A stretch of DNA of 64,000 bases, taken from the NCBI GenBank assembly GCA_963828195.1, contig CAWHDT010000005.1, forward strand, positions 64,001 to 128,000, in the 5' to 3' direction. Below, piece after piece: positions 21,027 through 36,107 of this stretch. Source of the DNA: Candidatus Bathyarchaeota archaeon. GTDB lineage: Archaea; Thermoproteota; Bathyarchaeia; Bathyarchaeales; Bathycorpusculaceae. A program made the translations under genes and the position numbers. Position 1 is the stretch's first letter. Each line of letters begins with the position of its first letter. Under the pieces are notes generated by a model, which was not told the DNA's origin, searched no databases, and was given only the letters and a program-made list of their open reading frames with translations.

Positions 21027-22667
21027 GAGAGTGTGTGAAAAGTCTCTTTTTTGCGTCTATTTACCGTTAACCTTAAATCTAGACTGGCTTTAGAGCAACA
21101 GAAAGAGCTGAAGAGCCATGAGCGAACACGTAACAGGCCATTACAGAAATCAATCAGTTCTCTTCCCAAACATACTCGACGATTACGTTGACAAAGAGAA
21201 CCCGGTTCGGTTCATTGACGCCTTTATCGATAGCCTCAACTTAGAGAAGCTCGGATTCAAGCACTCAGTACTGGCAGACACAGGAAGACCATCTTATGAT
21301 CCTTCAGACCTGCTAAAACTCTATCTTTATGGTTACCTCAACCAAGTGAGATCAAGCAGAAAACTCGAGAAAGAGTGCCACCGCAATGTCGAGGCCATGT
21401 GGCTCATGAAAAAGTTGGCTCCAGACTTCAAAACCATTGCTGACTTCCGAAAGAATAACGTAGAATGCATCAAGGGAGTGTTCAAGGAATTCGTTTATCT
21501 TTGCAAAAGCCTGGACCTTTACGGTGCTCAGTTAATAGCTATTGATGGAACCAAATTCAAAGCGGTAAACTCAAAAAGCAACAATCTCAACGAGAAAACA
21601 GTCGCTTTGAGGCTCAAACAAACAGAAGAAAAGATAGCAGAGTACCTCAAAGAAATGGACCATAACGACACGGCTGACTCAGATGAAGATGAAAGCATCA
21701 ATGTAGATGATCTCAAGGAAAAAATATGCAAGCTTGAAGAGGAAAAGCAGCGATATGAGCAGATTCAAGGCCAAATGAAGGCAACTGGCCAGAGGGAGGT
21801 TTCACTTGTTGATCCTGATAGCCGTTTGATGCGGGTAGACAGTCAAAGGCTTGAGGTCTGCTACAACATTCAGACGTCTGTGGATGCGAAGCAGCATTTA
21901 ATTGTGGATTATGATGTTATCAATAATTCGACTGATCACCATCAGCTAGCGACTGATGCTAAGGCTGCAAAACAGATGCTTGGTGTTGATCGGTTGGAAG
22001 TGTTGAGTGACAAAGGATTCTACGTTGCGAATGATCTCGTTAAATGTGAGGAAGCTGGGATAACGGTGTTCATGCCGATTCCAGCTTTCAATCCTACTAA
22101 GAGTGCGGGTGTACCGGAGCCTGAGTTTGGTTCTGAAAGGTTTATTTTCGATGGGGTCAAGGACGTTTATGTTTGTCCTGGTGGGAAGGAACTGGGGTTT
22201 TGGAAGGGAAGTTTCAAGGGTAAGCCTGAATGTGGTAGGCGTTATAGAACGGTTTCCTGTTCTCGTTGTGATTCTAGAAGCAGGTGTACTCGAAATAGGC
22301 GGGGCAGGATAATGGTGAGGTGGGAATATCAGGATGCGGTTGACAGGCTTAGAGCAAGGCTTGTGAGTTCTGAGGGAAAAGAGAAGTTGCGTTTGCGTCG
22401 GATGTTGGCGGAGCATCCGTTTGGAACAATGAAGCGGGCATTCAATCAGGGTTATTTGCTTTTGAAAGGTTTGCGGAAGGTCAAAGGAGAAGTAGGATTT
22501 ACTATGCTTGCGTACAACATAAGGCGGGTCTTCAACATTCTTGGAGTTAGAGCGCTAATGGGTTTGATGAAGACGTAAAAAAGAGAAAACAAGTGAATAA
22601 TGATCCATGACAATAGCTTGAGCGCCAGGTATTCTTAGACTTTAGCTCTGAGTTTTGACACAGTCTG
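21027..22667 (+). mobile_element. IS1182-family insertion sequence
   Basis: imperfect TIRs GAGAGTGTGTGAAAAGTC (21027-21044) and GAGTTTTGACACAGTCTG (22650-22667), 14/18 match; 4-bp target duplication GTTC (21023-26, 22668-71). Confidence 0.92.
21118..22578 (+). CDS. IS1182-family DDE transposase
   Basis: GRPSYDP..LLKLYLYGY...SSRKLE...PDFKTIADFR, IDGTK, DKGF, EHPFGTMK. Confidence 0.95.
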   Translation: MSEHVTGHYRNQSVLFPNILDDYVDKENPVRFIDAFIDSLNLEKLGFKHSVLADTGRPSYDPSDLLKLYLYGYLNQVRSSRKLEKECHRNVEAMWLMKKLAPDFKTIADFRKNNVECIKGVFKEFVYLCKSLDLYGAQLIAIDGTKFKAVNSKSNNLNEKTVALRLKQTEEKIAEYLKEMDHNDTADSDEDESINVDDLKEKICKLEEEKQRYEQIQGQMKATGQREVSLVDPDSRLMRVDSQRLEVCYNIQTSVDAKQHLIVDYDVINNSTDHHQLATDAKAAKQMLGVDRLEVLSDKGFYVANDLVKCEEAGITVFMPIPAFNPTKSAGVPEPEFGSERFIFDGVKDVYVCPGGKELGFWKGSFKGKPECGRRYRTVSCSRCDSRSRCTRNRRGRIMVRWEYQDAVDRLRARLVSSEGKEKLRLRRMLAEHPFGTMKRAFNQGYLLLKGLRKVKGEVGFTMLAYNIRRVFNILGVRALMGLMKT

Positions 22668-23407: not shown

Positions 23408-23608
23408 ATGCCTGAAACATCTATTAATATAACTGAGAAGTTACAGAAAATCGGTCAAACTGCTCAAGAATACAAAGACGCAATTGTAAGCCAATTCAAG
23501 GACATGGAAGTAGAAGTTAAAGATTGGAACTTTGCTGTTGGAAAATCTGACAAAGAATACACCATTGAAGTTAATCTCAAGCTTGGAGTACGCTCAAAAA
23601 AAGCCTAA
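23408..23608 (+). CDS. small hypothetical protein
   Basis: AGGAGGTG SD before ATG (MPETSIN); pyrimidine-rich terminator after. Confidence 0.7.
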   Translation: MPETSINITEKLQKIGQTAQEYKDAIVSQFKDMEVEVKDWNFAVGKSDKEYTIEVNLKLGVRSKKA

Positions 23609-23804
23609 GCAACAAAGCATCTGTTCAGCAGTAGAAACCGGAACCCCTTTTCTTTAAAATTAAATGTTAATCTTTTAAATGCTGTATTTGGCTCTCTTAA
23701 GTTAAGTGTTATTTTTTCGACTTGTGATGGTTAAAATTGTTTTTCACCAAAACAGATAAAAACTCGACTTACATCCATGAAAGCACCAAATAGAGTGAAA
23801 AAAT

Positions 23805-24005
23805 ATGCCAACTGAAATAACGGATGTTGATAAGTTCGTAGCCATGAGCGCCAAAGCAAAGCATTGCTCAGTACAAAGACTCAAAGACACTGTAAAACTT
23901 AAACTGAGAACCCCCAGTCAACTTTACACCTTAAAAATTGAGCCCCTGCGAGCTGATGAAATCATAAAAAGGCTTCAATGCGAAATTCAAGAGAAAGAGA
24001 AATAA
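23805..24005 (+). CDS. rpl38e: 50S ribosomal protein L38e
   Basis: MPTEITDVDKF...VKLKLRTPSQLYTLK, typical eL38. Confidence 0.85.
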   Translation: MPTEITDVDKFVAMSAKAKHCSVQRLKDTVKLKLRTPSQLYTLKIEPLRADEIIKRLQCEIQEKEK

Positions 24006-24066
24006 AAAATTTTTAATTTTACCAACTTATTCTTTTAATTTAAACTGTTAGCATTACGTGTAAGCC

Positions 24067-24090
24067 GTATACATTAGCATCAACAAAACA
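24067..24090 (-). repeat. 24-bp dispersed motif copy 1
   Basis: revcomp TGTTTTGTTGATGCTAATGTATAC. Confidence 0.75.
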
Positions 24091-24282
24091 TATTTTGAAG
24101 AGCCCTATTGCCTCAAGTCTAACTTTTTACTTTCTTAAAACGTCTCGAAAAGCAACGAACCTTAAATATACATGAAAAGATAGACGAGCTTAGTTTAAAA
24201 AAACGGCAAATCAGAAACTAAAATTGACTTCGACCAACGTCTTTTCTTCAAAAAGAACAAGACAATCCTGATTTTCTTTTTC

Positions 24283-24326
24283 AAAAGAAGAAGAAGACTA
24301 GAAAAACTGTTTTTCTTCTTCTTCCA
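24283..24326. repeat. GAA/TTC fold-back repeat, copy A
   Basis: AAAAGAAGAAGAAGACTAGAAAAACTGTTTTTCTTCTTCTTCCA; near-identical copy at 40144. Confidence 0.7.
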
Positions 24327-24771
24327 AAGCTTGCAATTATGACATAGTGACACAAAAACGCCAATAAACAGGGAAGATAGCTATTGGCAGATATTAAAAT
24401 TGGCCTCATGTGAGGGTTAATAAAATGTTTTTTGACAGCCGGTAGCCTCTCACGCCAGCCTTTTTAAAAGTGTTGAGGTGCAATGCATTTGCTTTCGTGT
24501 TTCCTTGCCTACGAAATTCAATCGAATGTAAATTTTTCATATGTAAAAGTTAAAAAAAATAATAAGATTAAGTTAAAAATTAACTAATCCTGTTAAATCA
24601 TCCATGCACGTTGTGTTCTTAAACAGCTTCGGATAACGAAATTCAAGCTATTTTTTAGTTTGGGAAAAGAAGATATTTCTGCAGGGATGAATAGCATTAG
24701 TTTGACGATAGTAACTTTGATTTGCTGCAAATGAGGACTTCACTTGGGAAGGAGATGGAGAGTTAAAAATG

Positions 24772-24795
24772 TGTTTGGTTGATGCTTTTGTATAC
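24772..24795 (+). repeat. 24-bp dispersed motif copy 2
   Basis: TGTTTGGTTGATGCTTTTGTATAC. Confidence 0.85.
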
Positions 24796-24886
24796 CGTTG
24801 GGGCTTTCCTACACCGATTTTCTTTTCAGTTTTGTCGAAAACTCAATTTTTTGCTAGTAATACTTCAAAACTTTATGGTGTAATCT

Positions 24887-25594
24887 GTGAATATTGAATG
24901 CAACTTGTTAACTTCTATTCTTAAAATGACGAAAAAAGGGCCAGTTTTAATTGAAAATGTCAACAATGATGCCCGCATCCCATCCTCAACTGCCCAAAAA
25001 TTGCTTGGGAAACTGCAAAATGAAGGTCTCATTTATTTAAGAGAGGGCAGCATCGAAGTGGAAAAAAACAGTAGGCTCAAATTGGCGGTAAAAGCGGTGT
25101 CCGAAGGGGGAGACTTGGAGCACATCAGCAACTTGCTCCGTTGGCAGGAGTTTGAAGAAATAACAGCTTTTTCCCTGAAAAATTATGGTTATACTGTGTC
25201 AAATAATGTTCGATTTAAAGGTGCAGCGCGCAGATGGGAAATAGATGTAGTCGGTTGCAAGAAGCCCTTAGTCATCTGTATAGACTGCAAACATTGGCAA
25301 CATGCAATTACGCCTTCAGCTTTAAAAAGAATTGTAGAATCACAATTGGACCGCACAAAAGCATTTGCGGATTCGCTGCCAAAAATCAAACTAAACTTTG
25401 AATGCACACAATGGAATAAGGCAAAGTTTATTCCATGCATATTGTCGCTGATGCCTAGCTCTTTCAAGTTCTATTATGACGTGCCTATTGTGCCTGTGCT
25501 TCAGCTGCAGGATTTCTTGAACCAGTTGCCAGTTTATACCGAATCGATTAAGTATTTTCCGAAAACCTTCAATTCTTTAAGTCATAATTTTTAA
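24887..25594 (+). CDS. wHTH plus PD-(D/E)xK restriction-endonuclease-like (Mrr-like) protein
   Basis: WQEFE...GYTV...WEIDVVG...IDCKHW; N-terminal HTH-like segment. Confidence 0.75.
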   Translation: MNIECNLLTSILKMTKKGPVLIENVNNDARIPSSTAQKLLGKLQNEGLIYLREGSIEVEKNSRLKLAVKAVSEGGDLEHISNLLRWQEFEEITAFSLKNYGYTVSNNVRFKGAARRWEIDVVGCKKPLVICIDCKHWQHAITPSALKRIVESQLDRTKAFADSLPKIKLNFECTQWNKAKFIPCILSLMPSSFKFYYDVPIVPVLQLQDFLNQLPVYTESIKYFPKTFNSLSHNF

Positions 25595-27451
25595 AATCGA
25601 ACTTTTAGCTACCCTAAAAGCTGGGTAGAGACTAAAAAGCAAGATTCCAGCCAAAGCTGCAAACAACAAACCAGTTATCTCCAAGATTGTAAAGCCCGTA
25701 ACTATGGGTTGAGGCAGCAAAATAAGTAACGTAATAATGGTGCCGAGTGATATTCCAACGCCAAAGCTTGAAAGCAGGATAATTATGCTTTGTATCGCCA
25801 AAACAACGACGACAAATTTAGGTTTAGCACCAATAGCCCGTAAAACGGCGAATTCTTGATGCTGCTCATCCACGGCAAGCATCATGTAACTAAACATGCA
25901 AAGAGCAGCAGACACCAAAGTAAATAGAGGAATAATCATTACGGTCTGCCAGGCTGAGGCTAAAAAACTCGTGTTTTTGTCAACAGTGCGATCTAACTGG
26001 AAAACATTCAAGCTTGGATCCGTCGATTGAACCAAAGTTTTAATTTGCGCAATAGCCGCAGATTGGTCAGCCGAGTTTTTCAGCGTTAACAGTAGCAGGT
26101 TGGGGTTGAATTCGCCTGAGATGCTTTCTAACGTTTGAATGGGCAGGTAGGTGACATAGCCATTGTTTGTGGGGTCCACGCAGGTCCCAACGATGTTAAA
26201 GGTCACGTTCTCAAAAGATATTCCTTCCACAAGAGGATTGGCTTGACTTATGCCCTTGCTGGGATCAGCAGTGTACATGGTAACAGCTATTGAGTCGCCT
26301 ACAACTGCGTCATAATTGTCGGGTGAACTTAAAAATTGGCCTTCAACGTGCCAGGTTCCAGCAAGAGTAGCGGGGTCAACCCCCATAATTATTGAATTTC
26401 CCTGTCGATCGCCGCCAACTATAACGGTATCAGCCGATGTAGTTCCAAAGCTGTAGTTAGAGACCTCTTGCACGGTTCCCTGTAAAACAAGACGTGAATC
26501 AACTGAACCTACAGTGGACAAGGAGTTTAATTGATTGATGATTGTTTGGGGAATCATCAAGTTTGGATCTGAATAATTAAAGTTGGCTGCTGCTTTGGCG
26601 CCCGAAAATGTTGAAAGCAACTGTTCATATTGGTTGCCCATACTGTTTGTAGCTATGGCAATCGTGTTTTTGCCAACGGTGTTTTGAACCCATGTGGTTG
26701 TTGTGCCTTCAGCAATGATGCCTCCTGCAATCGAAATTGTAAGCAAAATAAACACTATCGCAAGTAAAGCAAATATTCGTAAGGTCCCTGATTGTCGGCG
26801 GAGCATGCTTCGAGCAGCGATAGCCCATGTTAAACGGGACTTTGACAACGATTTATGCTTGCTGGCTGTGATTAAACCATAAAAGTTTACTAGTGACAAC
26901 GCCTTTGTCGGCGACATTCTAGAAGCTTTCAGGATAGGCCAGAGACCAAAAAACAGCGACAAAACAAAAAACACGACGAAAACTGCAGGAATATACAATA
27001 AATTGGGCAATCGGTAGCTTGAAAAAACGTAGCTAGCTACGCCAAAATCCATTAAAAAACCCAGCAGTATACCTAAAACACATCCAGCGAGAGTCGTTGT
27101 AAAGAGTTCCGTCATAAAGTAACCTGCAACGAGGCTGTTTGGGCATCCAGCCGCCTTTATTAAGCCGAAATCTCGGGTTCGCTGTGCCATCATAAAGAAA
27201 GCAATGAACGAAGTTAGCGCTGCACCCACTGCAAAGATTAAAATGCCGATAAAAAACATGAACTGTGAAAAAATTGATGTCAAACCCTGTGTCAAGACGC
27301 CCGTAGAGGCGGTAAAACCAACGCCTAAACGTCCGCTGAAAAGCAGCAGAAACAGGGTGGATGCGACGCTTAACGCCAAGGTGACAATAGTTAAGGTTGT
27401 TTGGAGGCGCCTGCGAAGCAAATCATTGATGGGGAAAGCAACGTTACTCAT
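25577..27451 (-). CDS. FtsX/MacB-like ABC transporter permease
   Basis: two FtsX modules (QRTRDFGLIKAAG; EFAVLRAIGA) around an extracellular domain. Confidence 0.88.
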   Translation of the reverse strand: MSNVAFPINDLLRRRLQTTLTIVTLALSVASTLFLLLFSGRLGVGFTASTGVLTQGLTSIFSQFMFFIGILIFAVGAALTSFIAFFMMAQRTRDFGLIKAAGCPNSLVAGYFMTELFTTTLAGCVLGILLGFLMDFGVASYVFSSYRLPNLLYIPAVFVVFFVLSLFFGLWPILKASRMSPTKALSLVNFYGLITASKHKSLSKSRLTWAIAARSMLRRQSGTLRIFALLAIVFILLTISIAGGIIAEGTTTTWVQNTVGKNTIAIATNSMGNQYEQLLSTFSGAKAAANFNYSDPNLMIPQTIINQLNSLSTVGSVDSRLVLQGTVQEVSNYSFGTTSADTVIVGGDRQGNSIIMGVDPATLAGTWHVEGQFLSSPDNYDAVVGDSIAVTMYTADPSKGISQANPLVEGISFENVTFNIVGTCVDPTNNGYVTYLPIQTLESISGEFNPNLLLLTLKNSADQSAAIAQIKTLVQSTDPSLNVFQLDRTVDKNTSFLASAWQTVMIIPLFTLVSAALCMFSYMMLAVDEQHQEFAVLRAIGAKPKFVVVVLAIQSIIILLSSFGVGISLGTIITLLILLPQPIVTGFTILEITGLLFAALAGILLFSLYPAFRVAKSSILKIMT

Positions 27452-28136
27452 TGCTACCCGCCAATTTGCCGTCTTCAAGACATAAAACTATGTCGGCCAA
27501 CTCTTTTATTTCACTGTCATGAGTTGCAACAATAACAGTTTTGCCCCTACTTTTAAGCAGCTGGAGCACTTGAACGATTTTCAAACTGTTTTTAGAATCC
27601 AAGTTTCCGGTGGGTTCATCCGCCAAAATAAGCTGTGGATCATTAGCCAATGCCCGTGCAAAAGCTACCCGTTGCTGCTCACCGCCGCTAAGTTGGGCTG
27701 GAAAATGGTTCGCCCTATTCTGCAAACCTACAGTTTCAAGAAGTTCGGTTATCCGCGTCTCCGCTTTTTCCTCAGACGTCCCAATCCACTCCATCGGGAA
27801 CGCAATGTTCTCAGCAACTGTTAATGTTGAAACAAGATTGTACGCTTGAAAAACAAAGCCCACATTGTTGCATCGATAATCTGACAGAGCATCTTCGTTT
27901 TGAACAGTTAAATCTTGGTCGTTGACGAGAATTTTGCCGCTTGTCGGCTTGTCAATTCCGCCGATAATGTTAAGCAATGTTGTTTTTCCCGAACCCGAAG
28001 CCCCGCTTAGCACGACGAATTTGGCTTTGGGAATTGAGAAAGTTACGTCTTTTAGGACTTCAAGTGTTTCGTTACCGATCGGGTATTTTTTTCCCAGATC
28101 CTGGGCATTTACTGTGACGCCTTTTTGCTTTTCCAG
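27444..28136 (-). CDS. LolD/MacB-like ABC ATPase, probable CTG start
   Basis: [25 protein letters not shown]; frame stays open upstream of the ORF-track GTG and encodes the expected N-terminal strands. Confidence 0.88.
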
Positions 28137-28212
28137 TTTAGATCTTTTCTCCGGTATAGAGAGAGGTTTCAGCCTCTAATAATATACTTTGAGGTTCATT
28201 TGCGTACATTGC

Positions 28213-28647
28213 CTAATTGTAAGTTGTGTCCAAGTTTAGATTTCCTCTATCCCGCTTAAGAATTCTGACTTTTTCAGGAAGCTTATTTTTCTCCCAATCT
28301 ACCCAGCTGATTTCCTTGAAAAGCCAACGTTTACCCAGATGCGCTGCAACGACGGCGTGCTTATGCCCGTTGTCGGCAGGGATGAAGAAGTCGAGAAACC
28401 TGAAGAGTTTATCGATCTGTTGTTTGGGAAAGTAGGCGTAGTAGGTGGCGTTTTTTACTTCAAAGGCGTAGCTGTGTGCGCCTTTTCTCGCCATGATGTC
28501 TGGCAGCGGATTGAGGCTGGGATTACTTACTGGCACCCGGACGGCATTGTAGCCTTTTTTTTGCAGAAGCTTAACCAACACCGTTTCGCTGTAGAAGCCT
28601 CTTTTGCGCCAGCGCCGAAGCCTCACTCTGTCTAGTTCAGTGCTCAA
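28213..28647 (-). CDS. Hjc-like Holliday junction resolvase
   Basis: RGFYSE...GYNAVRVPVS...PDIMA...FEVK. Confidence 0.78.
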   Translation of the reverse strand: MSTELDRVRLRRWRKRGFYSETVLVKLLQKKGYNAVRVPVSNPSLNPLPDIMARKGAHSYAFEVKNATYYAYFPKQQIDKLFRFLDFFIPADNGHKHAVVAAHLGKRWLFKEISWVDWEKNKLPEKVRILKRDRGNLNLDTTYN

Positions 28648-28724
28648 ACTGTTTTCCCCTTTTATGTCGCTACTTTATAGGCTTTGGAGATACAAATTGT
28701 TGCATAGAAGTGCCTGAAAAAGTT

Positions 28725-28748
28725 TGTTGTGTGGATGCTTTTGTATAC
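28725..28748 (+). repeat. 24-bp dispersed motif copy 3
   Basis: TGTTGTGTGGATGCTTTTGTATAC. Confidence 0.8.
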
Positions 28749-29000
28749 GACTCAAAAGGTGGTGTGCTCTGGAGAACGCTGGTTACGGTAGAAATTCTGT
28801 GTAATACCGACGTCACCAATGTTACCGTACACGTAAATTTCTTCATTCACACAACCAAAATATTGCCTGATTAGGCTACAGTAACCAATGCAAAAGCAAG
28901 CGCTGAACCCGAAAGAACCCCAAACAAAGACACCTCAGAGACAAAAAAAATCGCCCCCACCAAAACTTAGTGAAGCCCAAAAAACGCGGACAGTCAGGCT

Positions 29001-29024
29001 GTATACAAAAACATAAACCAAACA
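29001..29024 (-). repeat. 24-bp dispersed motif copy 4
   Basis: revcomp TGTTTGGTTTATGTTTTTGTATAC. Confidence 0.8.
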
Positions 29025-29637
29025 CACCCCGCTGAGGTCAAAGGCAAAACTGTCTCAACCCACTGGGCAATATAGAGCTCTAAAAAACTGTTGACAAAGT
29101 ACAGACTATTTTCCACCAAGAAACAATCAAACAAAAGTTTCCTGCCTAAATGTTAAGACTTCGGCGTGACTGCGTAAATTTTTTGTAGCTGATAATTTGT
29201 GTCTAAAATCAGCTAAGTTTTCAAAGGCTTTGAGAAAAACTGTAAAATGCTCGAAGTTGAACCGAAAAGTGAGCCGTTTGTTTCGTATGGAGATTTTCGA
29301 GGGTACTTATATGAGGCCCCGATATTCTCCATGCCAGTGCTCTATAGGGTGGATAGAAAAGGCTAAAATAAGGTCTTTTTGACAGTTTAGACATGAATCA
29401 GGCTTTTTAATTTTCGTTTCCATAGGAAAAAACTGGCTGAATTTTCGGCTTCATAGTTTCGCATAAAAACACCAATGTTTTACCAATTTTATGGCAAAAT
29501 AACCTTTAAAATCAATTATTTTATTAAAATATGGCAAACGGTAAACCGTTTTTTAAGGCTCACGTGGGGAGCAAAAAATTTTTACAGATTTAATAATTTT
29601 TTCTGAAAAAGCAACAGCTCACTCAGATGTGGGTTGG

Positions 29638-30161
29638 TTAAGGCGGCAAGCCTTTAGCTGCATTATCTCTTAATGTTTCCAACCAAACTTGGTGCTGCTT
29701 CACCATTCGTTTTCCAGCCAACACATTTACCAATCGTGTGAGAAAGCCACGCTGCCGCTCCTCAGTAACAACACGGCAACCTGATTCAGTTTTTTCAATT
29801 AGCCACGCTTGATAGCCAGAATCCCCAGTGCCGCGAAACTCAAAGGCAAGACGCTGAGGAGGCAGAAATTCCTGCACTTTGCAGTTCACGGTTACACTGA
29901 AGGCAGTGGCCTTTCCTTATCAGGATTATAGAATCCGATTTTCCACTTAAATCGCGTACCCAAAGCAAGGTCAGGAGGCTGCCCCTCAATGAAGCGCATG
30001 TTGGCTGAGTTCGGATACCACGTAGGCCAAAGTTGCGCGCGTATAAGCCAAGCCCAAACGACCTCTGGATCCGAAGGCATTTCAAGTTCATTTCGGACGT
30101 CAACACGGCAATTTACAACGGCATAGTGCGTTGGCCATAAAATCTGATTTGACTCGGCCAT
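29638..30161 (-). pseudogene. SRPBCC/START (polyketide cyclase-like) gene split by a 35-nt insertion
   Basis: PEVVWAWLIRAQLWPTWY...RFKWK / FSVTVNCKVQEF...GCRVVTEE; removing 35 nt at ~29905-29939 gives one 162-aa ORF. Confidence 0.75.
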
Positions 30162-30306
30162 AGATTGAACCCTAACAAGCCATTATGTCACCTTTAGGTA
30201 TAAAAAATTTTTTGCCTCTAAGACCCCAGCGTAAGCTATAACTAACGAATAGAAGTCTCAAAAGTTCAATAGCTTAGCCGCAAAGAAGCTAAAATACTAG
30301 AGCGAG

Positions 30307-30483
30307 GTGATTGAAACGAAACTTAAAACCTCACGGATACTTTCTATTCTGACATTAGTTTTAGGGTTGATTACTGCAGGGGTTAGCGGAACCACAGATC
30401 ATACTGTTCACGCAGCGTTCGGTGGACTAACAGTGTTATTTGCATTAGTAACAGCGATAAGCCTTTTTCTTTTAAAGCAATAA
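30307..30483 (+). CDS. 58-aa two-TM membrane protein, start uncertain
   Basis: SRILSILTLVLGLITAGV...HAAFGGLTVLFALVTAISLFLL. Confidence 0.5.
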   Translation: MIETKLKTSRILSILTLVLGLITAGVSGTTDHTVHAAFGGLTVLFALVTAISLFLLKQ

Positions 30484-30646
30484 TTCCTGCCTACGCAAAG
30501 CCAGAATCATCCTGCTGCTTTATTTTTAGAATTGCCAAATAAACAAGTCCAGCTCCGCTTGTTTAAAACCTTACATAACAAGCTTAGCGGCTTCCGCTAT
30601 TATTAGAACTTCACGAGCCCAGAAGCCAGCCGACCTTAAGAGCTTT

Positions 30647-30670
30647 GTATACAAAAGCATCAACCAAAAA
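30647..30670 (-). repeat. 24-bp dispersed motif copy 5
   Basis: revcomp TTTTTGGTTGATGCTTTTGTATAC. Confidence 0.85.
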
Positions 30671-31195
30671 GCTTGACTGCCTTAATTTCGGCAGCTTAAG
30701 TTTTCAAAAAACTTCGAAGCCTAACGAACTTTATATATACGTTGCAGATTTAAAACCAAAGTCGGTTAAAAAGAGCAAACAAGAGCGCAACTGATTTTTT
30801 AAATTAGAAAATAGACGCCTTAAGCCATTAAACATGTTCAGTATCACTTAAAATTATTTTTTTGGGGCTAAATTAATCGGTTTTGGGTCAGTAAGAGGTT
30901 GACTCTCAGCTTTTGACCTGACTATATTTAGAAAAATGCATGCCGAACAACTTTTTTATTAAACGAAAGCCAGTAAGAACGTTCATTTTAAACACATAAA
31001 CGTCAAAAGAATCTTAAACTTTCATGCAAAATTCAACATTACTTGCAATTATCCACGTTATTTTTGTTTTGGTGAGGCGTTCGGGCGGCGAAGCCTCGTC
31101 AATTTTGCCTTTTGCGAAAATCGGATTTCATGAAGTTTGTACCCTTAGAAACGTTTTTCAGCGCTTCATGTGATAAACAATTAGAAGAGGTTGCA

Positions 31196-31612
31196 ATGTC
31201 AAACTTTAAAGTTGTAAACAAAAGCTACAGCTTCACCACGAGGGGCGAAATCGACTTTATTGATTTATCTGACAAAGTGCAGGAGGAGGTTTCGTTTTCA
31301 GGCGTCAAAAACGGAGTAGTTCATATCTTCGCGCCTCACGCAACAGGCATCCTGATTTTGACGGAAAACGATTCTGCATTGCTAGACGACATTAAAGCGC
31401 TGTTGGAGGAACTTGCGCCAAAAAACAAGGAATATCATCATCCATCTAACGCTCATTCACATTTGCGCTCAATGATTTTTCCGCCAGATAAAACACTGCC
31501 CATAGTTGGTGGCCACATAGCTTTTGGAACTTGGCAGTCGCTGCTTTTTGTTGAAACAGATGTTTACCCGAGGAAAAGAACCGTAATAATCCAGGTCATG
31601 GGCGAGCAATAA
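31196..31612 (+). CDS. yjbQ: YjbQ/UPF0047 family protein
   Basis: FAPHATG, YHH..NAHSHL, GTWQ..LFVE; GAGGT SD before ATG 31196. Confidence 0.9.
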   Translation: MSNFKVVNKSYSFTTRGEIDFIDLSDKVQEEVSFSGVKNGVVHIFAPHATGILILTENDSALLDDIKALLEELAPKNKEYHHPSNAHSHLRSMIFPPDKTLPIVGGHIAFGTWQSLLFVETDVYPRKRTVIIQVMGEQ

Positions 31613-32185
31613 AAAACAGCAACATCGCTTTTGGCTGTGTGATAAATTTTGCGAAGGTTTCTGATTTCGCGTCTCGTACAGGCAAGAACAAGTGGCTAGC
31701 ATGGTATTTTTAACGTTTTAATGATAATCCAATAACATAGCAAACTATTTTTTAACTATTTATTGTAAAAAATTACCATTCGGAATAGTTTCGCCTCGCA
31801 TCAAAAAAACATTAACTCAATTTTGAACTGCTGAACCGAGTCTGCAAGCTAAAACTACCTGATAAGACTGAATAAACCCGCTAACAGAAGCGCGAAAACT
31901 GGCTAAAAACATTGAAAATCAAAATTAATTAAAGCCAATTACAACAATGTTTCAAAATTAGGTCTTTTTCAAATGGTTGCACCGCCAAATGCAGGAAACG
32001 CGAGGGGCTTTTACTGCAGAAATGCGTGGTTGGGCTTCACTTGACCCATTTTTAGATTCTTGAGCAACAAAAAACGGGTTAGTTGCCAATTTTGGTAAGT
32101 TGAAGAGACAGTTAATTAATCAGGCTGGTTTTTTTTAAAAATAAAAAAGTATGATTATATAAGGTTCGTTGTACTTCGAGAAAAT

Positions 32186-32923
32186 TCAGCGTGTGCTTTC
32201 AGTACGAACCCTTTTTGCCGCTCCTTTAGAACGCATTCTTGCTTTTTTCTTAACCACCGCTCTCTCAGAAGGCTTATTCTCCAAGACATCAGGCTCAGCT
32301 TCTCCTAGCGGCAGGTCATCAACAGCATCTGGAAAATCATCGTTTGTAGCTTGTTCACCTCCAGCTTTAAGCATCGCTGCCATTGCCCGGTCAACATCGC
32401 CCGGCTCCAAGTTGATTCCCAAGGTTGCATCCGCCAGCACAACCGTCACGTAGCCAAGTTTACGGGCGTCAAGAACCGTGTTCAAAACGCAGTAATCTGT
32501 TGCTAAACCTCCGATGAAAAGACGTTTGGTCTCGCACATTTTTAGTTCATGAGCGAAGCTTGTTCCGTCGAAAACCGAGTAGCTTTCATGCTCTGGATTT
32601 GTGGCTTTAGAAATCACCGCGACGCCATCAGGCAGCTTAAGGTCGGGGCTGAATTTTGCCCCTTCAGTTCCCTGCACGCAGTGGGGCGGCCAAGGACCAC
32701 CCTGTGTTTTGAAGGATACGTGATTGATTGGGTGCCAGTCTCTTGAGGCAAAAATATGTGCTTTGGCATCTTCAAAGCGCCGCTCATAAGCGTTTAAAAC
32801 AGGAATTATTTCGTCGCCGCCTTCAACGGGAAGGGCGCCGCCGGGCATGAAGTCTTTTTGGATGTCAGTTATCAAAAGGGCATCGGAACTTGTTATAACA
32901 TAGTTTTTTTTCAAACAAAACAC
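32186..32923 (-). CDS. pncA: nicotinamidase/pyrazinamidase
   Basis: DIQKDFMPGGAL, SRDWHP, WPPHCVQGT, GLATDYCV. Confidence 0.92.
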   Translation of the reverse strand: MFCLKKNYVITSSDALLITDIQKDFMPGGALPVEGGDEIIPVLNAYERRFEDAKAHIFASRDWHPINHVSFKTQGGPWPPHCVQGTEGAKFSPDLKLPDGVAVISKATNPEHESYSVFDGTSFAHELKMCETKRLFIGGLATDYCVLNTVLDARKLGYVTVVLADATLGINLEPGDVDRAMAAMLKAGGEQATNDDFPDAVDDLPLGEAEPDVLENKPSERAVVKKKARMRSKGAAKRVRTESTR

Positions 32924-33058
32924 CTATCATTTTTTCGTTCAGAATACATTCAGAAGCTTAACATAAAATAAGTGGGTACTATCGAATAAACTTTTTTGAA
33001 GCCGCTCGTCAATGGAGAGGTAATTAAGGTTTTGCGAGCGTAGTGAAATGGTGAGACC

Positions 33059-33195
33059 ATGTCAGTTTTAGCCTATGTTTTATTCAAGGTTTCTTCGGGA
33101 ACGAAGCAGGATTTCGTTTCGGAAAGTTAGAACAATGCCTGACATTCTTGTTCACTTCCACCATGATAATTTCGAAAGAGTACATCGGAAAATGT
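33059..33195 (+). pseudogene. internally deleted Lrp/AsnC ligand-binding-domain remnant
   Basis: MSVLAYVLFKVSSG... joined to ...KVRTMPDI..TSTMII. Confidence 0.45.
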
Positions 33196-33227
33196 TACCG
33201 ACCTCAAAACAAGTGAGGCTTTTAGTT

Positions 33228-33251
33228 TGTTTTGGTGATGCTTTCGTATAC
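33228..33251 (+). repeat. 24-bp dispersed motif copy 6
   Basis: TGTTTTGGTGATGCTTTCGTATAC. Confidence 0.85.
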
Positions 33252-33306
33252 CGCTTAGGATAGGCTTATCTCTTAACAGGGCACAATAATTTATTCAGGC
33301 ATCAAC

Positions 33307-34848
33307 ATGCAGGCTGAAAAACAAAACTCAACCATTTCAAGCCGCGAAATGCGAGCCCTTGAAACCAACGCAGAGTACTTTGGCATAAGTCTCCTTCAAC
33401 TGATGGAAAACGCAGGGCGCAACATAGCCCGCGAAACCATTTCAAGGTTCCCAAAAGAAAACAAAATTGCTGTTTTCTGCGGTTTAGGCGGAAACGGCGG
33501 CGACGGCTTCGTAGCTGCCAGGCACCTTTCAGCGGCAGGTTACGGTGTAGTCGTCATTCTCGTGGGCAGAAGCCGCGATATTAACCATGAAGCTGCCTTG
33601 AAAAATTGGGAGATTCTCCAGTGGACCCAAGATAAAACTCCTATAGTTGAGGTAACAGACAGCTCTGTTATACCCAAAGTTTCTGCGGACGTAGTCATCG
33701 ACGCCTTGTTGGGAACGGGCATTAAAGGAAAACTTAAGCCGCCGATTTCCCAAGTAGTTGACTACATTAATTCTTTGAATGCGTTCAAAATAGCGGTCGA
33801 TGTCCCCACAGGTATAGATTCAGACACAGGTGAAGTTTTAGGCACCGCTGTAAAAGCCGATTTGACAGTGACATTCCACAAGTCAAAGCTGGGGTTAAGC
33901 AAAGCGAAAAAATACGTTGGTGAACTCGTTGTAAAATATATAGGGGTGCCTCGGGAAATGGAGCAGTTTGCAGGTCCAGGCGACGTTTTCTTGGTTACGA
34001 AACCGCGTAATCCGATGGCTCATAAGGGAGATTTTGGGCGTCTTCTGGTTATTGGCGGAAACGAAGTTTACTCAGGAGCCCCAACTTTGGTTTCTCTTGG
34101 TGCTCTTCGGACAGGCATAGATCTTGTTTATCTTGCTGCCCCAGCAAAGGTGGCTTACGCGATTTCCTCAATGTCTCCTGACTTGATAACGATAAAACTT
34201 GACGGAGACCACCTGAACCCGGGCAACGTAGAAACGTTAAAACCGTACTTGAAACTTGTTGACGCGGTAGCGATGGGGCCAGGCATGGGGTTAAAACCTG
34301 AAACCCAAGAATTCGTCAAATTATGCATTGAAGAAGTTGAGAAGGCTGGGAAACCCCTGCTTCTAGATGCGGACGGGCTAAAAGCGTTCGCCAAATTCAA
34401 AAGACCCTTAAAAGTTCCCCTTGTCCTTACGCCCCACGCAGGCGAATACGCAATTCTGACAGGCGAAACTTTACCTGAAAACCAAGAAGAACGCGTCTTG
34501 GCAGTGCAGGAAACCGCTGAGGAACTTGACGCTGTTGTTCTTGTAAAGGGCAAAGTTGACATAATTTGTGATGCCGAAAGGGTAAAGTTGAATTTCACGG
34601 GTAACCCAGGCATGACTGTTGGGGGAACAGGCGACGTTCTCAGCGGCATTGTGGGAGGTTTAATGGCTCAACACGTCGATCCGTTTGAAGCCGCAGTTGC
34701 AGGCGCCTTTGTCAATGGTGCCGCAGGCGATTTTGTTGCAGATGAAATTGGTTTTCACATGGTTGCATCTGACATTATTGATTGGATTCCTCAGGTTTTG
34801 GATGATCCCATGAGTCATTTGAAGGTGCGCAAGTCAAATGGAAACTAA
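33307..34848 (+). CDS. nnr: bifunctional NAD(P)HX epimerase/dehydratase
   Basis: LMENAG, GGNGGDG, DALLGTG, HKGDFG, LTPHAGE, GGTGDVLSG. Confidence 0.95.
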   Translation: MQAEKQNSTISSREMRALETNAEYFGISLLQLMENAGRNIARETISRFPKENKIAVFCGLGGNGGDGFVAARHLSAAGYGVVVILVGRSRDINHEAALKNWEILQWTQDKTPIVEVTDSSVIPKVSADVVIDALLGTGIKGKLKPPISQVVDYINSLNAFKIAVDVPTGIDSDTGEVLGTAVKADLTVTFHKSKLGLSKAKKYVGELVVKYIGVPREMEQFAGPGDVFLVTKPRNPMAHKGDFGRLLVIGGNEVYSGAPTLVSLGALRTGIDLVYLAAPAKVAYAISSMSPDLITIKLDGDHLNPGNVETLKPYLKLVDAVAMGPGMGLKPETQEFVKLCIEEVEKAGKPLLLDADGLKAFAKFKRPLKVPLVLTPHAGEYAILTGETLPENQEERVLAVQETAEELDAVVLVKGKVDIICDAERVKLNFTGNPGMTVGGTGDVLSGIVGGLMAQHVDPFEAAVAGAFVNGAAGDFVADEIGFHMVASDIIDWIPQVLDDPMSHLKVRKSNGN

Positions 34849-35395
34849 ACCTGAAGCGCAAAAACCAATTTTATCCGTCAGGATCAGCATTTATCATGCG
34901 GCTCAAGATGACCCAAAAAAGAACACTGCATTAAGGCTTAAACGTCGGGGATTCGCCAGAATAGTCACTAGAGCGAAGTTTTTGCCAAAGCGAGCCATCG
35001 TATTGAATCCTTTTGGTGAAATCGCGTTTTCTCCAGCCGACAGGGGAAGGCTTGAACAATTCGGGTTGGCTGCGCTGGATTGCAGTTGGGAACATGCCCA
35101 GAAAGTAATGGGTAAACAGGTTAGAGGGACGAGCCGCTGCTTACCCATCTTGATTGCGGGGAACCCCGTTAATTTTGGCAAATGGACAAAGTTAACTACG
35201 GCTGAAGCGATCGCGGCTGCATTGTATATTGCGGATTTCAAGAAGGACGCTGAAGAGCTTTTGTCGATTTTTACATGGGGACACACGTTTTTGGAGTTAA
35301 ACAGCGTGTTGCTTGAGAATTACTCGTTGGCGAAAGATAGCGGTGAAATCGTGGAGATGCAGACGAGGCTTCTGAAGGGGAAAAGATGCGATTAA
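34838..35395 (+). CDS. tsr3: 16S rRNA aminocarboxypropyltransferase
   Basis: QDDPKKNT, SPAD, LDCSW, LIAGNPVNFG, FTWGHTFLELN. Confidence 0.92.
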   Translation: METKPEAQKPILSVRISIYHAAQDDPKKNTALRLKRRGFARIVTRAKFLPKRAIVLNPFGEIAFSPADRGRLEQFGLAALDCSWEHAQKVMGKQVRGTSRCLPILIAGNPVNFGKWTKLTTAEAIAAALYIADFKKDAEELLSIFTWGHTFLELNSVLLENYSLAKDSGEIVEMQTRLLKGKRCD

Positions 35396-35398
35396 CTG

Positions 35399-35422
35399 TG
35401 TTTTGGTGATGCTTTTGTATAC
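35399..35422 (+). repeat. 24-bp dispersed motif copy 7
   Basis: TGTTTTGGTGATGCTTTTGTATAC. Confidence 0.85.
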
Positions 35423-35489
35423 GGCTACCCAGAAAATAGGCTAATTAGCCGCGAATACTTAAGCAAGATAAACGTTTGTTCCAATTAAT

Positions 35490-36107
35490 ATGGGAAAAGT
35501 GACCATGGAAACAAAGCAGCAAAACCCTGATGTTGAACACTTCAACCGCAGAGCAGCAACTTACGAGACCGAAAGTAGCCAAGGATATTTTTTTGATAGA
35601 GTACAGAGAAGAGTTTTAAAGTTAGCTAAGGATCAAAGCAGCCCAGAAGTCATTATGGATGTGGGTTGCGGAACGGGGCGGCTGCTTAGAAAAGCCAAGC
35701 TGCAATGGCCCAAAGCCCGTTTGGTTGGTGTTGATGCAGCTGAAAAAATGATACAGCAGGCAACCCTGCTTTTTTCAGAAGCAGAATTCCATGTTGCGAT
35801 GGCTGGAGCTTTGCCTCTGCCTAACGCCTCGGTTGACCTTGCCTTTAGCACTCTTTCATTTCACCATTGGGCAAATCAGGCTAAGGGCATCAGCGAAATC
35901 GCACGCGTTTTACGACCTCAAGGAAGGTTTATTCTGGCTGATATCGTTATTCCAAGTTGGTTATCGCTTTTTGTCCAGCATTTTAGATTTAACAGCCCCG
36001 CAAAAATACGCGAAATGTTTACGCAAGCAGAGTTAACTGTTGAGTTGCAGCAACAGCAATGGCGGTGGTCAAGGGTTCTTTTAATTACCGAGGGAAGGAA
36101 GCATTAA
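35490..36107 (+). CDS. class I SAM-dependent methyltransferase
   Basis: MDVGCGTG, FHHW, RVLRPQG. Confidence 0.9.
   Translation: MGKVTMETKQQNPDVEHFNRRAATYETESSQGYFFDRVQRRVLKLAKDQSSPEVIMDVGCGTGRLLRKAKLQWPKARLVGVDAAEKMIQQATLLFSEAEFHVAMAGALPLPNASVDLAFSTLSFHHWANQAKGISEIARVLRPQGRFILADIVIPSWLSLFVQHFRFNSPAKIREMFTQAELTVELQQQQWRWSRVLLITEGRKH

Follow-up and report, generated by a model that had tools for sequence, protein, structure and literature searches.

What is the role of a 24-bp word that recurs seven times, in both orientations, within 11.4 kb of the chromosome of a Candidatus Bathyarchaeota archaeon? The word lies in a stretch of 64,000 nucleotides (G000:C5:64001-128000, hereafter the window) of a genome assembly, G000, that comprises 2,830,904 bp in 9 contigs. 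The preliminary description of the window had proposed a chromosome-level protein-binding site rather than a regulon operator. Here we report that this motif is conserved among relatives, that its copies on the two chromosome arms point from the replication origin, oriC, towards a convergent pair of copies (S3 and S4, ~250 bp apart) near the opposite point, and that an inversion between relatives runs between two of the copies. Five further copies are gathered around the pair in this genus. The layout appears to be that of bacterial replication-terminator sites, and it has not been described in archaea. We suggest that the motif is a polar protein-binding site along the origin-terminus axis, most likely a Ter-like fork trap or another direction-dependent barrier, and put the probability of this reading at roughly 0.4.

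The consensus pattern TGTTTKGKTGATGCTTTTGTATAC was scanned over the window with up to 3 mismatches allowed. Seven copies, S1 to S7, were detected (Table 1), with exactly the coordinates and strands of the preliminary description. Each has 0-2 mismatches to the consensus, and 100 dinucleotide shuffles gave no match. The 15-mer core of the motif detected the same seven sites, against a shuffle mean of 0.22. When the copies were aligned with 80 bases of flank, conservation was limited to the ~24-bp word and the flanks differed between copies. All seven lie outside open reading frames (ORFs) with Pfam support. A degenerate copy reported at ~44881 (CTCTTGTTGATTTTTTATACAG) scored below every threshold applied and was not counted. 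A position-weight scan of the whole genome revealed eight sites scoring 35.9-43.2, the next best scoring 19.6; the eighth strong site, besides the seven of the window, is C1:247833(+). The chance of finding seven of eight genome sites inside 11.4 kb is ~2e-12. Strong conservation, asymmetry and the small number of copies make the motif look like the binding site of one protein. The motif is asymmetric, as previously described, and its terminal palindrome GTATAC is not a general feature: families f7 and f6 carry GTATCC instead, which makes GTATAC less likely to be a site of methylation.

The core motif was present in syntenic clusters in all 24 genomes of the genus first sampled. Within the order it was found in 123 of 151 genomes, with 1-13 copies each, and a reversed control pattern matched almost nowhere. 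In a class-wide draw of 201 genomes the motif was found in 50, all of them among the 61 of this order, and in none of the 140 from other orders. Conservation across Bathyarchaeia, which had been put forward as a check, was thus examined, and the motif is confined to one order. Many small genomes have exactly one forward and one reverse copy, and wherever these were inspected they formed the convergent pair. The smallest conserved unit is this pair, 220-335 bp apart, beside a gene of the UPF0047 family; it was seen in G030, G031, G032, G067, G085, G099, G126, G096, G089, G130, G117, G159, G161, G151, G136 and G072. The genes for the Holliday-junction resolvase Hjc and for a NERD nuclease with a winged helix-turn-helix (NERD/wHTH) are frequent neighbours. 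Family f6 has a diverged motif, GGTTATGCTTTTGTATCC, which was mostly missed by the pattern search. The polarity of the copies, the convergent pair as conserved core and the restriction to one order all go beyond the preliminary description.

Polarity was determined for every copy outside the terminus cluster that lies on the same contig as the initiator gene orc1-A. The set covers 22 genomes of the genus (G000, G001, G003, G005, G008, G010, G011, G013, G014, G015, G016, G019, G023, G041, G043, G046, G109, G115, G134, G138, G157 and G164) and two of family f7 (G040 and G105). All 48 site-instances in these 24 genomes point away from orc1-A, with the left copies on the minus strand and the right copies on the plus strand, and the rule is valid to 300 kb from orc1-A. 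For example, all five copies of G157 are minus, and G115 has three left copies on the minus strand and one right copy on the plus strand. Five of five further copies, located 22-55 kb beside the cluster (in G046, G138, G005 and twice in G008), point towards the cluster. The 48 instances are orthologous across genomes and therefore represent about ten distinct loci rather than 48 independent events. The probability that ten loci all agree is ~0.001, or ~0.004 when the observed gene-strand bias is allowed for. Since that bias amounts to just 51-58%, it does not explain the polarity.

The genes next to the polar copies vary. They include GDH, MazG, the 3' end of S19, LysRS/AsnB and EndoIII with a ribbon-helix-helix (RHH) gene, and in G040 GGR/DUF996; outside the core block the neighbours differ between families f1 and f7. 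The motif is on the strand opposite GDH, MazG, EndoIII, LysRS, Hjc and UPF0047 and on the same strand as the NERD, Nnr and methyltransferase/LysE genes and an RHH gene. The S19, PhoU and Tsr3 stop codons are each closely followed by a copy, in two cases between convergent genes, and one copy (G040, f7) sits inside a TrmB-family gene. The preference for a chromosome-level site over a regulon operator is therefore partly supported, in that orientation tracks the origin-terminus axis and not the neighbouring genes. Within the cluster, four of the seven copies fit the rule, S2 and S3 facing S4 and S5.

Two matches were set aside. One mismatch separates G134:C5:245753(-) from the consensus; it ends in GTAGCC, the reversed control also matched once in that genome, and it was treated as chance, although if real it would break the polarity rule. 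The match at G040:1903229 falls in an integrase gene (locus L061 2291-2680) next to a tRNA gene, in the part that encodes box II (GHKSINST), and it was dropped from all counts. In this box, 17 of 18 bases equal the reverse complement of the motif, which in one frame reads (V/G)YKSIN. The likeness is striking, though probably a coincidence.

The likely oriC of G000 is C1:190800-191300 (locus L071 4650-5420), in the 770-bp region immediately upstream of orc1-A. It has two canonical origin recognition boxes (ORBs; TTTCCAGTAGAAAC..GGGGTG) 445 bp apart, a degenerate inverted box and AT-rich DNA. No orc1 gene adjoins the motif cluster, and orc1-A with its ORBs is on another contig, so that the 'initiator' role once considered for the motif does not fit. 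The position of the cluster was measured in closed relatives. It lies at 0.490 of the genome from orc1-A in G003 (2,354,843 bp; 22.5 kb off the opposite point), at 0.484 in G014 (2,683,460 bp; 43 kb off) and at 0.493 in G040, which belongs to another family (2,152,572 bp; 15 kb off). The near-opposite position is thus found in three of three closed motif-bearing genomes, and in G152, which has two contigs, the cluster is ~0.49 of the genome from orc1-A. A 'terminus-organising' role fits these positions, whereas a 'centromere/parS-like' one does not, the motif being asymmetric and its main cluster far from the origin. Orientation, position and pair together form a polar origin-to-terminus layout, of which the polarity is the strongest result. 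As a separate observation, the cumulative gene-strand count on C5 of G000 shifts from minus-rich to plus-rich near 800,000, as at an origin, and C5 has no orc1; this turn may be a rearrangement or a second origin.

The motif shares five features with ter sites: it is asymmetric, has the size of one footprint, is near-invariant, has few copies, and outside the cluster always points from origin to terminus, towards a convergent pair near the opposite point. On these grounds we propose a polar barrier. A protein bound at the motif in one orientation would act as a direction-dependent barrier, most likely as a replication-fork trap of the Tus-Ter or RTP-Ter kind. Forks from oriC would pass co-oriented copies and stop at the first opposed copy, and replication would end within or near the S3-S4 interval. 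The blocked machine would in the first place be the replisome. A structural maintenance of chromosomes (SMC) complex is a serious alternative, because the genome encodes SMC and a roadblock in Thermococcus forms an Smc-dependent boundary.

Similar layouts are known from bacteria. In the RTP-Ter system of Bacillus subtilis the TerI/TerII pair is closely spaced, whereas the pair described here is 220-335 bp apart around a conserved non-coding block and its adjoining gene is UPF0047, not RTP. The innermost RTP-Ter pair is, like ours, inverted at the terminus and accompanied by polar sites on both arms; the gene of its binder, a small winged-helix protein, adjoins the pair and has a ter site in its promoter (PMC10331603, in the sections covered). 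The Tus-Ter sites of E. coli are asymmetric, ~23 bp long and about ten per genome, much as the motif is. They lie on both arms, can be passed by forks from the origin, form two groups facing each other around the point opposite oriC and include one promoter site (PMC10331603, same sections), a layout that the motif copies resemble outside the cluster and, for four of seven, inside it. The motif differs from them in its unrelated sequence, in the lack of a detectable Tus homologue in G000, in copies that come to within 8-11 kb of the origin, in three in-cluster copies that point the wrong way and in the helicase, which here is MCM and not DnaB; fork arrest, an observed property of Tus-Ter, would here be a prediction. 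Tus-Ter and RTP-Ter are unrelated to each other and of independent origin, and in both systems the promoter of the binder gene contains a ter site (PMC10331603, same sections).

Other oriented elements resemble the motif less. KOPS-type words are short, have hundreds of copies and are skewed only statistically, whereas copies of the motif are long and near-invariant, number 1-13 per genome and are absolute in their orientation outside the cluster. KOPS and the short polarised sequences around archaeal dif do resemble it in an orientation skewed along the arms to the terminus (PMC2958812, in the part available). Archaeal ORBs are likewise asymmetric boxes of similar length in inverted copies, but their sequence is unrelated, and the canonical ORBs are beside orc1-A, where the motif cluster is not.

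For the archaea examined to date, the usual view is that replication ends at whatever point forks happen to meet. Tentatively, the motif could be the first sequence-defined, orientation-dependent barrier in archaea, acting on the replisome or SMC, with a pair that fixes the end of replication, and it would then have arisen independently of Tus-Ter and RTP-Ter in a lineage with an MCM/CMG-type helicase. A 2023 review of termination mentions no archaeal fork trap in the sections covered (PMC10331603). The literature searched contained no occurrence of the 15-mer core or its reverse complement, and a search on archaeal fork traps and Bathyarchaeia origins returned nothing on the motif.

Several observations weigh against a polar barrier. 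S1, S6 and S7 (three of the seven copies) point outward throughout the genus, and the f7 cluster has one outward copy (<- -> <-); a strict fork trap with such copies would halt forks outside the cluster. As in operators, the distance to a start codon downstream is 40-130 bp for most copies. Because distance from the origin tends to be inherited, the three near-opposite positions count as one or two events. Among single-contig metagenome-assembled genomes that are 90-92% complete, the diverged f6 pair of G081 is at 0.39 of the genome from orc1-A, and no copy was found in G092 (f6) or G093 (f7). The copies of G095 (f6) are ~80 kb from orc1-A, yet both point away from it. A second orc1 paralogue, orc1-B, lies 400-530 kb from the cluster and makes a second origin possible. 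GC skew, against which mapping of the motif had been suggested, gave no usable signal. In Sulfolobus, termination occurs by random fork collision (PMC3020120, in the part covered).

The search for a binding protein adds to these points. No match to Tus (PF05472) was found in G000 at E<=0.01, in a search whose control recovered the E. coli protein. The sole match to RTP (PF02334) was below threshold (18.9 bits against a cut-off of 26.7, E=0.004); it is at C5:37868-38080, 50 kb from the cluster, in an ORF judged by eye to be a PadR-type winged-helix protein. By eye, G000:C5:37794-38780 (locus L087 1294-2280) holds two divergent PadR-type winged-helix genes, one of which gives this RTP match. The NERD/wHTH protein was detected in 129 of 151 genomes of the order, including 12 of 12 from f6, where the consensus motif was mostly not found. 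It was not found (E<=1e-8) in nine sampled motif-bearing genomes of g24, g20 and g31, in five of which the convergent pair was located, and was accordingly rejected as the binder; it has no informative sequence match in the PDB. The source names of homologues of this nuclease put the organism in Bathyarchaeia. The ORFs beside the pair were rejected as a common binder because they were unrelated in the comparisons of G040 with G030 and of G030 with G034. We know of no DNA binding by UPF0047.

Could the machine stopped at the motif be a loop extruder rather than a fork? The motif would then be a roadblock, loading or unloading site of the CTCF or XerD/XDS kind, at which Smc-ScpAB is stalled or released on its way from origin to terminus, and the pair would mark a boundary of the terminus domain. 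This covers the same polarity and position data as a fork trap, and G000 encodes a canonical 1183-aa SMC with a hinge domain at C5:934k. The outward copies at the cluster edges fit nested boundaries more easily than they fit a fork trap. In Thermococcus kodakarensis, an intergenic sequence around dif that is bound by TrmBL2 stalls Smc-ScpAB and forms a CTCF-like boundary (PMC11840125, in the part covered). Like the motif, this is an archaeal chromosome-organising element in a large intergenic region. It consists of a nucleoid-protein filament and rests on structural properties of the DNA, not on a defined, oriented 24-bp word, and the part of the report covered describes no genome-wide polarity of copies (PMC11840125). 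The sole connection of the motif to TrmB is the f7 copy inside a TrmB-family gene. We consider an SMC site unlikely.

The distances to start codons raise the question of whether the motif is instead the operator of a transcription factor with a small regulon, its position and polarity being by-products of conserved gene order. Most copies are not only near a start codon but also 25-45 bp 5' of a canonical TATA-like box, with distances to the start codon of 52-58 bp for Nnr, 75-80 for Hjc, ~70 for UPF0047, 50-71 for GDH, ~40-60 for MazG and 49 for EndoIII. The pair is tied to UPF0047 in every family examined, and several neighbouring genes serve DNA or metabolite repair. A regulon of UPF0047, Hjc, the NERD nuclease, Nnr-Tsr3, methyltransferase-LysE-Macro, GDH, MazG and EndoIII, doubtful as it is, would follow. 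Nearness to promoters says little, because any non-coding element in a compact genome must sit near a promoter. Against an operator, the motif occurs in both orientations relative to its neighbours, copies are found after S19, PhoU and L38e between convergent genes and in one case inside a gene, and f1 and f7 share no neighbouring genes outside the core block. Above all, orientation to orc1-A is uniform (48 of 48) at a gene-strand bias of 51-58%. Regulation of nearby genes is improbable as the primary function, and an operator function of some copies would be compatible with either a fork trap or an SMC site.

The genus has two arrangements of the cluster. In arrangement A (G000, G003 and others) and arrangement B (G014, G015 and G005) the segment from S1 to S6 is inverted relative to one another. 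Arrangement B reads L38e, site(-), isochorismatase(+), UPF0047(-) ... Hjc(+) ... NERD(-), site(-), spacer, site(+), Nnr. The AT-rich spacer has moved as a block, conserved modules included, and adjoins the copy on the Nnr side. That copy has the degenerate 5' half typical of S1, TGTGTTGGG, while its 3' flank is still the Nnr promoter region. Together, these features place both breakpoints within the 24-26-bp copies. Since S1 and S6 are inverted repeats straddling the pair, the inversion keeps the overall arrow pattern. Stalled forks are recombination hot spots, and the copies that incoming forks would meet in the opposed orientation are these two, S1 and S6. Rearrangement joints at 24800/28842 and 28749/28831, found in contigs of four DNA runs, were rejected: they have the motif on one side, a diverged other side with 85% likeness and short sides, and the contigs are short and of low depth, with joint sequences that belong to relatives.

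An inversion with both breakpoints inside copies would also be expected if the motif were a site of DNA rearrangement, either the target of a site-specific recombinase (an invertible segment, att-like or dif-like) or the domesticated ends of an old 300-bp transposon. The convergent pair is laid out like 24-bp terminal inverted repeats that flank a conserved core, the S4-S5 content varies between genomes, and G030 has a weak integrase-like ORF at a distance of 400 bp from the pair. A single inversion can equally arise by homologous recombination between short inverted repeats. Relative to Hjc, the S3-S4 interval lies the same way round in all 15 genus genomes compared and thus shows no sign of flipping, and the motif does not have the pair of inverted arms, separated by a spacer, that is typical of core sites of tyrosine and serine recombinases. 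There is one unit per genome, at the same syntenic place across the order, with no multi-copy element sharing its interior and no recombinase gene conserved beside it. Copies on the same arm are direct repeats, and hundreds of kilobases would be lost if they recombined efficiently. A rearrangement site is quite improbable.

A second, non-ORB origin opposite oriC, with the S1-S2 spacer as unwinding region and the motif as box of another initiator such as the second Orc1, is scarcely plausible: Orc1 proteins bind asymmetric boxes of a length similar to the motif, a second orc1 gene is present, the spacer is AT-rich and, as oriC is, flanked by copies pointing away, and the point opposite the first origin is the best place for another, but the copies 22-55 kb to either side point towards the cluster, genes right of it are 58% minus (282 plus, 386 minus) as if forks run towards it, orc1-B is 400-530 kb away, the spacer is confined to family f1, and the unit conserved across the order, the convergent pair, encloses an interval that is not AT-rich.

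Known sequence classes were also compared, and the 24-bp motif is not a promoter, ORB, dif site, end of a miniature inverted-repeat transposable element (MITE) or known RNA. Upstream of the 36 tRNA genes, TTTAAATA/TTATATA-like boxes and an A-rich B recognition element (BRE) recur, as judged by eye without a count. The motif is unlike these boxes and occurs in both orientations, and Nnr and Hjc each keep their own conserved TATA-like box between motif and start codon; a core promoter (BRE/TATA) was rejected on these grounds, as the preliminary description had already held. The dif site is a single 28-bp site per chromosome with two 11-bp inverted arms and a 6-bp spacer (PMC11840125, in the part covered). 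The motif has 1-13 copies per genome and neither two inverted arms nor two-fold symmetry beyond GTATAC, and it was rejected as a Xer/dif site. A parS-type centromere, palindromic and near the origin, was rejected for the asymmetry of the motif and the distance of its main cluster from the origin (0.484-0.493 of the genome). ORB boxes share no sequence with the motif and sit at orc1-A, and the S3-S4 interval has 44.8% GC, so an ORB/Orc1 origin at the cluster was likewise rejected. Terminal inverted repeats of a MITE or insertion sequence (IS) do not account for one syntenic convergent unit per genome with other copies single and in unrelated flanks. According to the preliminary description, a uniform genome-wide spread at fixed spacing from transcription start sites, or identity with the ends of a known IS or MITE, would speak against it. 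The copies are neither evenly spread at a constant spacing from gene starts nor the termini of a multi-copy IS or MITE.

Rfam searches of the window with gathering cut-offs, and of 23500-36000 with E<=5, returned only four tRNAs elsewhere and chance-level matches, with no family at or beside any copy. No RNA sequencing run was listed as containing this DNA. For the S3-S4 interval, a structured RNA or small protein was rejected. RNAalifold on the given strand of 15 sequences gave -0.37 kcal/mol and 4 pairs with no covariation. No frame is consistently open: a reverse-strand ORF of 25-41 aa is open in ~8 of 15 genomes, and insertions and deletions shift the frame.

Table 1. Copies of the 24-bp motif and the features around them (window coordinates).
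Feature	Coordinates	Strand	Remarks
S1	24067-24090	-	TGTTTTGTTGATGCTAATGTATAC; 62 bp past L38e stop codon; outward-pointing; breakpoint of the A/B inversion
S2	24772-24795	+	~90-130 bp 5' of NERD/wHTH gene; directed at S3/S4 pair
S3	28725-28748	+	left half of convergent core pair; 78 bp 5' of Hjc start, on strand opposite Hjc
S4	29001-29024	-	right half of convergent core pair
S5	30647-30670	-	UPF0047 side; directed at S3/S4 pair
S6	33228-33251	+	56 bp 5' of Nnr ATG; outward-pointing; other breakpoint of the A/B inversion
S7	35399-35422	+	4 bp past Tsr3 stop codon, 68 bp before methyltransferase gene; outward-pointing
S1-S2 spacer	24091-24771		33.5% GC against 43.3% for the window; between divergent copies S1 and S2
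NERD/Mrr-like PD-(D/E)xK nuclease gene, N-terminal winged helix (P0001)	24887-25594	+	syntenic neighbour
Hjc Holliday-junction resolvase gene	28213-28647	-	adjoins S3 in the genus; beside the pair in G031
S3-S4 interval	28749-29000		44.8% GC; A+C-rich on plus strand
UPF0047 (YjbQ-family) gene	31112-31612	+	sole gene adjoining the convergent pair in every family examined

The order of features, based on ORFs and Pfam, is L38e(+), S1(-), the 680-bp AT-rich spacer, S2(+) and the NERD/Mrr-like nuclease(+) at the left end. FtsX(-), an ABC ATPase(-), Hjc(-), S3(+), the 252-bp interval, S4(-), 1.6 kb of poorly coding DNA and S5(-) follow in the middle, and UPF0047(+), isochorismatase(-), S6(+), Nnr(+), Tsr3(+), S7(+), methyltransferase, LysE and Macro at the right end. 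Conservation extends ~230 nt 3' of S3 in all 15 genus genomes examined, and the content of S4-S5 differs from genome to genome. In the latter stretch, an ORF of 89 aa with a weak match to Polyketide_cyc2 (SRPBCC) adjoins one of 83 aa in another frame (window 29638-30161(-)), and the two look like one frameshifted gene.

The S1-S2 spacer, found in family f1 only, combines conserved modules of the form 'CGAAAA..CGAA + TATA-like' with a single copy of a hairpin repeat that is dispersed over the genome. The modules (window 24510-24560 and 24630-24650) consist of CGAAAA, 4-5 nt, ATCGAATG and then TTTTTTACATTAAAAAGTTAAAAAA, with a third CG..CGAA element, and are conserved in 13 of 13 genus genomes aligned. 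The hairpin repeat (window 24283-24324, also at G000:C1:248059-248096) consists of AAAAGAAGAAGAAG, ~18 nt and CTTCTTCTTCTT, often followed by TTTTAAAA. It occurs at ~45 loci on all nine contigs in both orientations and could be a repetitive extragenic palindrome (REP)-like element or a terminator. Its copies near S1 and near the C1 site (GAAGAAGAAG..CTTCTTCTTC) belong to this separate repeat and are unrelated to the 24-bp motif.

S1 and S5 share a module ~55-70 nt upstream (window 24140-24175 and 30700-30745) with a TATA-like box, GTTCGYT and TTCGA. It resembles a promoter firing towards the motif and may give a short unannotated transcript. Between S6 and the Nnr core promoter, a palindrome, GATAGGCTTATC (window 33259-33270), is conserved in nearly all 15 genus genomes and is probably a separate operator. 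A DDE transposase gene (DUF772 + DDE_Tnp_1_6; window 21118-22578(+)), 1.5 kb left of L38e, was not at the corresponding place in the loci of 17 relatives compared.

Whatever its mechanism, the motif marks the origin-terminus axis, can be used to orient and verify genome assemblies in this uncultured order of soil archaea, and explains at least one inversion between relatives. If it is a polar barrier, it would represent a third evolutionary origin of fork traps or of CTCF-like oriented barriers, and the barrier would act in a lineage with a eukaryote-like replisome. It would then offer a natural system in which an MCM-type helicase is stopped in one direction.

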